Positions 41,511 to 46,679 of a DNA stretch of 64,000 nt are shown here, piece by piece; positions within the stretch are counted from its first letter, which is position 1; every line of letters begins with the position of its first letter. The DNA is from Patescibacteria group bacterium (GTDB lineage Bacteria; Patescibacteriota; Minisyncoccia; Phycocordibacterales; UBA9973), in contig JAZKAB010000009.1 in NCBI GenBank assembly GCA_040389365.1, positions 44,816 through 108,815 on the forward strand. Direction: 5' to 3'. The notes beneath the pieces were generated by a model. That model was not told the DNA's origin. It did not search any database and saw only the letters and a list, made by a program, of their open reading frames with translations. A program made the translations under genes and the position numbers.

Positions 41511-44500
41511 ATGTCATTTTGGGATACACCACAATCAAACGCTCCAGTCTCTCCAGCTAGTACTGGGGGTTTTTGGGGTGCTCCGGTCCCTGCTCCATCA
41601 AAGACGCCGCTGCAGAAGTTCCTGGCTCCTCCTGCGGCCCCAGTAGCCGCTCCGGTCCCAGAAAACAGCTTCTGGGGAATAGCAAAAAATACAGTGCTCG
41701 GCATTCCCAATGCTGCAGTATCTGAGGCAAAGAAGGCGGTAGGCGCAGTGAAAGAGCTTGTTTCTCCTACGCCCGGTATGCAATTTCGCGTTGGTGAAAA
41801 TCTTGATAATGACCAGACAAAAAATGCATACGAAGCAATCGCCAACAAGCAAAATGATCCTATCGCTCAGATGACGCCGGTAGGGCTTTCCGAAGGACAT
41901 GAGATTTTTAGAGCATTTCTTACTCACCAGCTTCGAACAGATCACCCGGAAGACTTTCCAGGAGAAGCGGGTCCTGAAATATCCCCAGAGCTTTTAAAGA
42001 AATCTTTTGAAGCAATGAATGCTCCAGTGCTTGGAACTGTAGGCGGAGCTGATTTTGTCGCTGAAAACATATTAAAAGGCAAGGCTTCTACAGAGCTGAT
42101 GAAGACTCTGGCAAAGACGAACACTCCCGAAGATGTGGGCAAGGTGCTCAAGTCTCTTAATATGAGCGACGATGTGGTGAGAGAGTTTTCAGAGCCGCTT
42201 TCAAAGGCCAAGACTTTGGATGAGGTAAAGGATGTGCTTTTGGGAAGCGTAAAAAAATCAGCGCCGAAGCAGGCGAGCTTTTGGGACGTTCCAGGCGAGC
42301 TTCCTTCTGCTGAAATATCACCCAAGGCGCAAGCGGCAAAGGATGCGCTCGTTGTAGCTGAAAAGAAGGCTTCTCCGCTCGCTAAGAAGGGCGTGGCTAC
42401 TCCTCTTGAAATTCCCGAGCAGGCGGCTCCGAAAGTTGCCGTTCCGCAGGCAGGGGGCGCGGAGTCCAAAACGCTTAACCGCTTGAGCGACGAGGCTAAG
42501 AAATATGCGACCGCCGATGAGTTCATAAAGAAGTCAGACAATACTAAGCTATTTCACGGAAGTAGAGATGCCGCACTGGTAGAAAAAGAGGGCTTCAAGG
42601 TTATGGAAGACATGGGCAAAAACGCTTTTGGCAACGGCGTTTATTTGAGCGAGAAGAAGGCGGATGCAAAAGGTTATGGTCACGGCAGCAATGGCGGCGT
42701 TGTTGAAACATATGTTCCGTCGGACTTGTCATTTAAGAAGGCGGGGCAGGCTGACATTGGCAAGATAGATGTTGCCGAACTCAAGAGCCAGGGATATGAC
42801 GGCGTGGAGATATGGACTCCGTATGGAAAGAATTACGTGGTTTTCGATCCTTCTAACGTTAGGACAAAAACTCAGCTTACGGAAATCTATAACGGCTCAA
42901 AGCCAAAGCAGCCAGCAGTAATCAGCTTTAACAAGGATGGGAGCATAAAGGGCACCAAGACAGGCTTGAATACTAAGAAGACAGCTGCTCCCGTAAAAGA
43001 GGAAGTTGCTTTTGAAGACCCTACTTCTGCAGTTGAGCGCGCGAAGCAAATAAGAAAAAACCCTTCCCTGATCAAAGATCAGCGTATTGCGCGTGCAAAT
43101 TTTAATACTACAGCCAATGAGAAATTGGGCAACATAAAGCAGGAAGTGGAGATTCGAAAGGACATGGCAGGGGACACGCCTGCGGCTGCTCTCGAGAAGT
43201 ACGTCATAAGAAGCGGCGACCATGCCGGACAGTTGCCCGAGGTGCTTGGACATACTGACGCGAGCTATCTTAAGCGCGTGAAGAATCCTGACGTGCTCGA
43301 ATACGCCAAAAAGGGAGACGTGATCGCAAAGGAGCTCGGCTTTGCCAGTCAAGAGGAGGCAATCGCAGCGCTTGAGGATCATATTGCCAACAAGTCAGAC
43401 ATAAAGGACACCAAGCAATCCCTTGCTGAAACTAGAAAAAGCTATGACGAGATCAAGAAGGCTTCGCATGCAGAACTTAAGGCGGACTATGAGAAGCGGG
43501 CTATCGTTGAAAATGTCGAGAAAGACCTTAGAAAAGAGGGGAGAGCTAGGGCAGATCAGATCAAGGCAATTCAGGATCATTTTAATTTGGAAAACAAAGA
43601 AATGCAGTCCATCCGTAACAAGGTAAGTGCTTCCGATTTTCGAACGATGACCGATGAGAAGTTTTCCCAACTGCTCGACGAGGTCCAGAAAGAGGCAGAA
43701 GATATCGCCATACAAAGAGATGCTCGCATAAACGTGCAGGCTACCATTCATTCTATGGAACTTAAAAAGGTGGACAATCTTCAAAAGGCATTGAAGCTTC
43801 CGGACATTAAGAAAATGACCGTTGATCAGCTCAACGAGTTCAATGATCTTCTTGAGACATTTCATACAGGGGATGAGTTTCTTGGCGTGCGCCAGATCCA
43901 GACGCTCAAGAACACCGACCTAGCAGGCATAAAGACGCGCAGAGAGGCTTTAGAGGCCCTTGCAAGGGAATATAGAGAGAAGACGGGCAAGCCGCTTGAT
44001 GCGAAAGATCTTGCTGAAATTACAATAGGCAAGCTTTCAAATGCAAAATGGCTAAGCGACTCGTCACTGGCAGAAAAAAGTCCATTTTTCCAGATTCTGG
44101 TTGATGAGGTAAACGAGGCCACTATCGGAGCAAGTCTCCGCTTCCATGAATTTAAGGAAGAGCTCAATGGGCTCATGAAAAAGGCTCGCGCGTCTCGCCC
44201 TCGCACATTTGCGGACAAATTGGTCCCAGTAGACAAGCAGATATTTAATTATCTCGAAAGCAATGCAGAGGACAAGGTCAAGCTCGCTGCAAAAATGACA
44301 CCCCAGGAAATGGATGCAGCTTTGTTTATACAGGAGAAATATGCCAAGGCACGAGACTATCTGGTAGAACAAGGCGTATTGAAGAAATACCGAGAAAACT
44401 ACATTACCCATACTCGAAGAGGGTTTCTTGAAGCCGTATTGCAGAAGGACTACACGTTTGATACTAACGGCAACCTCACAAAGGTTCCATCAAGCCTTCC

Positions 44501-46679: not shown

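Follow-up and report, generated by a model that had tools for sequence, protein, structure and literature searches.

The stretch of DNA described here (the window) comprises 64,000 nucleotides of contig JAZKAB010000009.1 (assembly GCA_040389365.1, positions 44,816 to 108,815), from a genome that is labeled Patescibacteria at NCBI. It contains a prophage of about 36 kb, located between cellular genes at approximately 15.4-51.6 kb of the window. Within the prophage a single open reading frame (ORF) at 41511..46679 (+), with an ATG start in the six-frame ORF list, encodes a protein of 1722 amino acids (aa), referred to below as the giant. The start codon lies 5 nt past the TAA of the preceding 421-aa ORF. 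The same sequence is deposited at NCBI on a 113-kb contig as 'MAG: hypothetical protein V4478_03375 [Patescibacteria group bacterium]' (MAG, metagenome-assembled genome). The giant is probably a polyvalent protein of the phage type, which would be packaged into the virion of this SU10-like podovirus prophage and injected into the host. It is composed of a conserved N-terminal module, one effector slot occupied by an ADP-ribosyltransferase (ART), a helical core of about 900 aa, three repeats and an HNH-like end. These parts, together with the disordered stretches between them, are arranged as follows (AF2, AlphaFold2; pLDDT, predicted local distance difference test; residue numbers are those of the giant).

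41511..41900 (+), disordered Pro/Ala-rich N-terminus, residues 1-130 (composition, pLDDT)
41901..42260 (+), small conserved helical N-terminal module, residues 131-250
42261..42470 (+), disordered Pro/Ala/Lys-rich linker, residues 251-320
42471..42905 (+), predicted PARP-fold ART of the ART-PolyVal (H-Y-D) type, residues 321-465 (Pfam, alignment, Foldseek)
42906..44030 (+), conserved helical link, residues 466-840, including a helix of ~77 residues at ~614-690 (AF2, relatives)
44031..45770 (+), conserved all-helical body, residues 841-1420, the hallmark of the family
45801..46190 (+), three acidic helix-turn-helix repeats, residues 1431-1560 (self-comparison, AF2 helices)
46206..46676 (+), Cys-free HNH-like (beta-beta-alpha) domain, residues 1566-1722 (relatives, hhalign, motif statistics)
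41517-41525, 41571-41579, 41670-41678 and 42279-42287, F-W-[D/G] motifs

Residues 327-439 of the giant match the Pfam families PARP (PF00644; E 6.5e-5, 23.0 bits, gathering score 26.7) and ART-PolyVal (PF18760; E 1.8e-3, 19.5 bits, gathering score 31.2), both sub-threshold. The homologous ART of the closest relative, P0009, scores 32.6 bits and is above the gathering score of ART-PolyVal. The ART of polyvalent proteins was defined by a His in strand 1, a Tyr in strand 2 and an Asp in strand 5 (PMC5512222). This triad is intact in the giant as H349 (LFHGS), Y378 (GVYLS) and D446 (VVFDPS), which align with the same residues of relatives. In an AF2 model of residues 1-522 the pLDDT is about 90 over residues 320-470, and comparison of the ART model with the PDB by Foldseek gave 120 matches at E ≤ 1e-3, the best of them to the PARP catalytic domains of tankyrase-1/2 (E 1.5e-5, probability 1.0, ~156 aligned columns, 17% identity). 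A PARP-like ART domain had been proposed in an earlier note, made from the DNA sequence alone, and is confirmed for residues 320-470 at the level of the predicted fold. The domain is bracketed by the motifs EAKKYATADEF (at residue 328) and TKTQLTEIYN (at residue 452), whose family forms, EA[RK]KY.SAEEF and TK.QLT.IYN, are present in 32 and 18 of 152 proteins, respectively, and in none of the shuffled sequences. In P0014 the first bracketing motif is followed by a different sequence that ends in a similar LTDIYNRA stretch.

The family of the giant was collected by an exhaustive HMMER search of 1.84 billion cluster representatives (clusters at 50% identity) with residues 320-1519 as the query. 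At E ≤ 1e-3 it comprises 770 representatives, of which 515 reach E ≤ 1e-30. The 150 relatives listed are 613-3427 aa in length and 35-51% identical to the giant. Six segments of the giant were compared by local phmmer with 157 sequences (the query, the 150 listed relatives and six from earlier searches). The body (841-1420) matched 150 sequences, corresponding to all 150 listed relatives, and the link (466-840) matched 149. The counts for the other segments, query included, were 42/157 for the HNH-like end (1566-1722), 23/157 for the repeats (1421-1565), 19/157 for the ART (321-465) and 8/157 for the N-terminal part (1-320), the last increasing to many more with iteration. The core is always placed toward the C-terminus and is preceded by a part of ~50 to ~2400 residues. 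Length variation in the family consists of added N-terminal globular domains, the size of the helical core being constant.

Pfam domains in 17 giants of the family were ART-PolyVal (five, best 1.2e-24), PBECR5 (three), LPD1, His_Phos_1 and DnaJ (two each), and RadC, GH108 with PG_binding_3, and Zeta toxin (one each). The same analysis of 28 further relatives yielded ART-PolyVal (four), Zeta toxin (three), PBECR5 (two) and single matches to DnaJ, HNH, EcoEI_R_C, a ubiquitin-like domain and AAA_33. Among 43 matches of a profile search, the precomputed domains were Zeta toxin (10), ART-PolyVal (eight), and PBECR5, LPD1, PF18765 and DnaJ (two each). Many relatives stop right past the core and have no recognizable effector domain. 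ART-PolyVal, the PBECR domains and the LPDs were first defined from polyvalent proteins (PMC5512222). Assignment of the giant to these proteins is supported, because its relatives keep the core and swap domains first defined in them. The earlier proposal of a domain-shuffled polyvalent protein of the injected kind is thus borne out at the family level by the swapped effector domains, the ART fold and the operon position; packaging and ejection we infer.

Like the polyvalent proteins described by Iyer, Burroughs, Anand, de Souza & Aravind (2017, J Bacteriol, PMC5512222), the giant is multidomain and encoded among late virion genes, and its ART is of the H-Y-D, ART-PolyVal / Tox-ART-HYD2-like type. 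The swappable PBECR1/5, LPD1, RadC, ParB-like and lysozyme domains of its relatives are likewise shared with those proteins. At least two disparate domains are combined in its 1722 aa (ART and HNH-like, with at least three non-catalytic modules). The domain network is that of polyvalent proteins: ART-PolyVal is sub-threshold in the giant and above threshold in the homologous domain of P0009, and ART-PolyVal, PBECR1/5 and LPD1 are found in the family. The gene neighbors are late or virion genes, with terminase, portal, adaptor and fiber-like genes in the operon of the giant and a similar setting at the loci L002, L004 and L011. P0002, which shares the C-terminal domain of the giant, is a classic polyvalent protein with Eco57I methylase, SNF2 and LPD38. 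Unlike the proteins described in 2017, the giant has a core of ~900 aa that matches no Pfam LPD or other model and a single clear effector, and no discussion of a Cys-free HNH-like end as a typical domain was found in that paper. Pfam detected no zincin metallopeptidase, MuF, portal, N4 RNA polymerase or SNF2/methylase hub domain in the giant.

When the full protein was used in an initial, word-indexed search for homologues, its candidate list was saturated and only two partial relatives, P0002 and P0003, were returned. P0002 (2984 aa; Eco57I methylase, SNF2, helicase C and LPD38) has only its last ~140 residues in common with the giant, at 41% identity, and P0003 (1731 aa) has the ART region and the C-terminal domain in common with it. 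A search with the C-terminal 163 residues returned 'small' proteins at ~50% identity, at least one of which is a gene-calling artefact. The true ORF, L001:3137-10543 (JAWVHB010003939.1, GCA_040384165.1), encodes 2468 aa, with 36% identity to the giant across residues 524-1298, 53% across the C-terminal domain and an unrelated N-terminal stretch of 1370 aa. Public calls for this ORF contain only its last 180 aa, along with a 317-aa ORF that runs antisense within it. P0004-P0008, which consist of repeats and the HNH-like domain, are probably fragments of giants as well. No locus was confirmed when IMG/VR was scanned with a two-sequence alignment. In GTDB, one pattern-limited scan found members in MAGs labeled Saccharibacteria, Parcubacteria, Omnitrophota, Bacteroidales, Smithella/Smithellaceae and Pseudomonadota. 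Since members occur in MAGs of several other phyla, the family is not specific to the candidate phyla radiation (CPR); the bin labels of short contigs are weak host evidence. The member at L011 (OY821638.1, 445.5-467.7 kb; 1760 aa, with a PBECR1 RNase domain) is encoded on a complete 5.2-Mb Smithellaceae MAG chromosome and is a second integrated example, outside the CPR.

Outside the N-terminus and the ART, the AF2 model of the giant (40-sequence alignment) is almost wholly alpha-helical, with a mean pLDDT of 79.6 and a predicted template modeling score (pTM) of 0.61, in agreement with the long alpha-helical body described earlier. Across 149 members, conservation reaches 90% or more at about 80 positions of the core (residues ~466-1420). 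Near-invariant polar or charged residues, about 17 over 788-1282, include D788, R794, R811, D908, Y964 and E974, and further near-invariant core residues are K1033, R1041, N1050, Y1058, D1069, N1107, G1111, R1112, R1172, E1236 and W1282. The helix at 1316-1334 is variable in sequence, yet it is the hydrophobic maximum of the family (mean Kyte-Doolittle value 1.44; at least 1.6 in 43 of 149 members). The core matched no Pfam family at E ≤ 1. PHROGs contained no family for the giant and none common to more than three of 28 relatives, and tblastn and megablast searches of 50,697 GenBank phage records gave no match to the giant. Against PDB sequences, phmmer with the giant returned noise only, and the family profile returned only coiled-coil noise from SMC and moesin, on the link region; Foldseek comparison of a 1200-residue model with the PDB gave nothing at E ≤ 1e-3. 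The core and the family chassis are undescribed and have no counterpart in Pfam, PHROGs, GenBank phages or the PDB. Since the core is invariant while the cargo varies, the gene position is conserved and podovirus ejection proteins are analogous, the core may be assigned a putative role in packaging and ejection.

The first 130 residues are predicted to be disordered (pLDDT < 50) and are partly conserved in relatives. Pro and Ala account for 30 of residues 1-100, as expected from the low-complexity, Pro/Ala-rich N-terminus reported before. The N-terminal module that follows carries the motif ...VLGxVGGxDF...AKExNP...LSKAKTxDEVKDVL and has a pLDDT of 84-96 over residues 190-250. It was detected by local jackhmmer in P0014, P0016, P0080, P0102, P0126, P0132, P0044 and others. 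The disordered stretches that precede the ART contain four copies of the F-W-[D/G] motif, at residues 3, 21 and 54 in the N-terminus and at residue 257 in the linker (FWD); the motif could have a processing or docking role. At the aligned places, relatives have NPFANIG- or NSFLG-like motifs.

The repeats past the core comprise residues 1431-1482, 1483-1521 and 1522-1560, with a period of 39 aa and a 13-aa insertion in the first copy; three tandem repeats of about 38 aa had been given in the earlier note. In the self-comparison the BLOSUM window scores were 82 and 58 at offsets 39 and 52, and no more than 33 (most no more than 17) at the other offsets tested. No tandem repeat was found at the DNA level, the repetition being at the protein level only. 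The DKDGNDEE loops were inspected by eye for an EF-hand, which was rejected, as Gly is at the wrong position.

The HNH-like domain is preceded by a conserved TYAKAIGTDPVTAF helix and a beta-hairpin, and the C-terminus of the giant contains LDHTIPIQLGGADSEDN. The residues that characterize the domain are D1654-H1655, N1669, W1678 and E1685-N1686. In 35 of 37 family members an Asp precedes the catalytic-type His (D1654 in the giant), and N1669, the structural Asn ~14 residues past the His, is invariant in the domain alignment. The N+9 position, which holds the helix metal ligand in HNH/HNN enzymes, is W1678 in the giant and Trp in 26, His in five and Asn in one of the 37 members. W1678 is followed by SYTPVEN (46542-46568, W1678 to N1686), and Glu-Asn is found at N+16/17 in 26 relatives. 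A Zn site of CxxC pairs is absent, with no Cys in the whole giant protein nor in the C-terminal 160 residues of 37 relatives. The earlier description as an HNH-like C-terminus lacking the Zn ligands is accurate, with the D-H and the N kept. The Pfam HNH match of the giant is weak (E 0.27); the copy of the domain in P0003 matches Pfam HNH_4 at the gathering score, and relatives match HNH PHROGs. The domain is the best-conserved part of the giant: the C-termini of P0002, L001 and P0004-8 are 41-53% identical to it, even in proteins that otherwise share little or nothing with the giant. When the family profile was compared with P0002, hhalign gave a probability of 99.8 for the C-terminal domain only, the core not being matched. 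Against the PDB, the C-terminal domain profile gave only summed weak matches of the acidic repeats to designer pentatricopeptide repeat (PPR) proteins and no significant single domain. In comparison with HNH nucleases (Pfam HNH and HNH_4; Cas9 HNH, McrA, colicin E9), the giant is without the Zn-binding Cys/His and has Trp instead of His/Asn at N+9. Because the catalytic metal site is non-canonical in this respect, nuclease activity appears doubtful, and binding or anchoring is no less likely a function.

The following genes of the prophage were identified around the giant.

22062-23486, large terminase (Pfam Terminase_6N, 6.1e-5)
23520..25535 (+), SU10-type portal gene (Pfam SU10_portal PF23899, 9.8e-8, above the gathering score)
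31021-32985, ORF matching a tail-fiber PHROG
35684..36340 (+), SU10-type adaptor gene, in the same operon upstream of the giant (Pfam SU10_adaptor PF24175, 5e-8, above the gathering score)
Between the adaptor and the giant, three ORFs of 651, 632 and 421 aa, for which no annotation was possible
47683..49143 (+), downstream lysin-like gene, 486 aa, with a PG_binding_1 domain in the middle
49885..50814 (-), tyrosine integrase, intact-looking, adjoining tRNA-Met at 51165-51235

As judged from these sequence matches, the prophage is temperate, SU10-like and of the podovirus type, and the giant is the last large gene of its structural operon. The gene is downstream of the adaptor and fiber genes and upstream of the lysis genes. 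The earlier note had described a single ORF following tail-fiber genes: the ORF and its size are exact, and the tail-fiber match and the adaptor lie further upstream; the three ORFs directly upstream are without a family match and show no similarity to the neighbors of relatives. No promoter or terminator of the giant's own was found nearby, and the window showed neither secretion-system genes nor a signal peptide on the giant. Purines are markedly enriched in the coding strand of the giant gene (region 42000-46000), where the skews at 42-44 kb (GC +0.14, AT +0.21) are among the most purine-rich of the window; AT skew is higher only at 16-18 kb and 26-28 kb. On the minus strand at 46685-47112, between the giant and the lysin-like gene, lie two small hydrophobic ORFs of 62 and 78 aa. 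The C-terminal ~100 aa of the lysin-like protein resemble lysin domains of phage endolysins and tape-measure proteins.

A search for att sites yielded only one 14-bp exact repeat, TAACGTCGCACAAT, at 15389-15402 and 51656-51669. About 0.6 such repeats are expected by chance, which makes it unconvincing, and the prophage ends it would mark are candidates, not established ones. Cellular genes occupy 1-15.3 kb and the region from ~51.2 kb onward. They include a split transketolase, FBP aldolase, ribosomal protein L25, a release factor, a CtpA-like protease, a P-type ATPase and an Eco47II/C5-methylase restriction-modification pair. The transketolase of the host, at 333-2201, is split into an N-terminal gene (288 aa) and a C-terminal gene (330 aa). 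A low-GC island (34% vs ~49% elsewhere) is found just past the prophage at 52317-54334 and encodes the Eco47II-type restriction endonuclease and the C5 cytosine methylase, the latter with an N-terminal MerR-type helix-turn-helix.

A comparable gene order is found in relatives. At L002 the SU10-type adaptor is followed by genes of 646 aa and 331 aa, the giant, two more genes and an amidase; at L003 the giant is followed by an M23 peptidase. At L004/L005 four large ORFs precede the giant, and one gene stands between it and PG_binding_1 and VanY peptidase genes. At L011 a 957-aa gene with a weak Phage_nozzle match is followed by genes of 212, 237 and 526 aa and then by the giant. Contigs with a family gene are typically 33-46 kb long and look like free phage genomes. 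In SU10 itself, the portal is gp6, the adaptor gp11, the fibers gp12/gp13/gp16, the nozzle gp17 and the needle gp18 (PMC9509320). The proteins gp20-24, encoded past the nozzle and needle genes, are virion components that disappear from the particle when the genome is released, and are accordingly described as ejection proteins (PMC9509320). By analogy, the giant ORF stands at the place corresponding to the SU10 ejection genes gp20-24. Location at the site of the ejected core proteins of T7-like or N4-like phages, as first suggested, therefore holds as regards the ejection-gene position, the nearer analogy being of the SU10 type rather than T7 or N4. Like the ejection proteins of SU10 (gp20-24), T7 (gp14-16), P22 (gp7/20/16) and N4 (gp50, the virion RNA polymerase), the giant is large, helical and encoded past adaptor or fiber genes. 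The N4 virion RNA polymerase and T7 gp16 combine an enzymatic activity with an ejection role, as is proposed for the giant. No sequence or fold similarity between the giant and the ejection proteins of SU10, T7, P22 or N4 was found. It also differs from these systems in being one giant gene, compared with five in SU10 and three in T7, and in a host that is probably a CPR bacterium.

As a polyvalent protein, the giant would be made late, together with the tail proteins, and loaded into the capsid by the N-terminal module, the helical core or both. It would exit by the channel of portal and nozzle, either before the DNA or along with it. Ejection or translocation would be the task of the helical core, which, with its hydrophobic helix at 1316-1334, would span or breach the envelope like the ejection proteins of SU10, T7 and N4. 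The ART would reach the cytoplasm without a need for gene expression and there ADP-ribosylate a macromolecule of the host, which might be a protein, as with T4 Alt, or a component of defense or transcription, so that the incoming genome is favored. The HNH-like domain would more likely bind DNA or serve as an anchor to the genome end or the portal than cut DNA. The proposed logic is that of T4 Alt, a head-packaged and injected ART by which host proteins are modified before phage gene expression. T4 Alt differs in being an R-S-E ART of ~680 aa that is processed by the prohead protease, whereas the ART of the giant is H-Y-D and PARP-like and lies inside a carrier of 1722 aa.

Several observations weigh against this interpretation. 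The giant has one clear enzymatic domain only, in addition to a doubtful HNH, and its own ART matches are below the Pfam gathering scores of PF18760 and PF00644. A MuF domain, a portal fusion and a metallopeptidase, the usual packaging or processing hallmarks of phage polyvalent proteins, were not detected. The helix at 1316-1334 of the giant reaches a Kyte-Doolittle value of only 1.4, below the 1.6 usual for a membrane span. The many near-invariant polar residues could mean that the core is an enzyme and not a conduit. Packaging and ejection are proposed from position and analogy.

The giant might instead be mainly structural, an ejection or internal-core protein whose core and N-terminal module form a DNA conduit or plug, with the ART and the HNH-like domain as passengers of little or no activity. 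Such a protein is the most serious competitor, even if unlikely on balance. It would agree with the core being the only universally conserved part, with the many relatives that end right past the core, with the Trp at the metal-ligand position of the HNH-like domain and with the sub-threshold matches of the ART. The intact H-Y-D triad and the confidently predicted PARP fold of the giant argue for an active domain instead, and the repeated independent gain of toxin-like or enzyme domains in one slot suggests a cargo under selection.

It is improbable that the giant is a prophage toxin or lysogenic-conversion factor, not a virion component, secreted by the lysogen against competitors or against the host cell of the CPR bacterium itself. 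CPR bacteria are episymbionts, the gene is close to the prophage end that carries the integrase, and the Zeta-toxin and PBECR nuclease domains of relatives are toxin-like. ARTs of the HYD type are shared with polymorphic toxin systems and were suggested to be toxins during lysogeny (PMC9503650). Against secretion from the lysogen stand the orientation of the gene with the structural genes, its start 5 nt past the upstream stop, and the lack of an own promoter or terminator nearby and of a signal peptide or secretion-system genes in the window. The position in the structural operon also recurs in the 33-46 kb contigs that resemble free phage genomes.

Slightly less probable still is that the core is an unrecognized enzyme, for example a cell-wall- or membrane-active one at entry, which would make the giant an entry enzyme with accessory domains. 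The near-invariant polar and charged residues over 788-1282 are in line with such a function, as is the transglycosylase activity of two ejection proteins, SU10 gp20 and T7 gp16. A tape-measure or other tail-length or tail-assembly protein of a long-tailed phage is very improbable. In its favor are the great length and largely helical nature of the giant, the late place of its gene in the structural module, and the neighboring lysin-like gene, which matches a PHROG annotated as tape measure via its lysin domain. Against it, no tape-measure match in Pfam or PHROGs was found for the giant, nor any among the PHROG matches of 28 relatives; portal and adaptor belong to the SU10 podovirus type, and a weak nozzle-type neighbor is present at L011; the gene is past fiber-like genes and not before baseplate genes; and lengths of 613-3427 aa vary by N-terminal globular domains around a constant core. 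A tape measure without enzymatic domains, named beforehand as the finding that would overturn the earlier note, was rejected on the absence of a tape-measure match in Pfam or PHROGs, the podovirus type of the phage and the ART fold.

Within the preferred interpretation of a virion-packaged polyvalent protein, a wider role of the family may tentatively be considered. The core and the N-terminal module might form a widespread ejection apparatus in a single polypeptide, serving as an entry conduit and as a universal carrier with a plug-in effector slot, and the Trp-type HNH-like end might be a nuclease-derived anchor of the DNA end or portal. The effectors would then be ART, PBECR RNases, Zeta toxin, RadC, lysozyme and others, and the users would be uncultured podovirus-like phages of ~40 kb with very different hosts, including CPR/Patescibacteria.

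Polyvalent proteins as such are already known; what is new is a polyvalent protein on a large, common and undescribed chassis. They were predicted from sequence in 2017 and have largely been without an experimental test since. With a constant chassis and swappable effectors in at least 770 clusters, the core is a concrete candidate for a delivery module. It merits a family model of its own, as its genes are now called 'hypothetical' or mis-split (e.g., in GCA_040384165.1). The phage biology of CPR/Patescibacteria is almost unknown, and the prophage, with its intact-looking integrase, and the relative in Smithellaceae are potential routes to induction and virion proteomics. The family constitutes a natural catalogue of what phages inject first.

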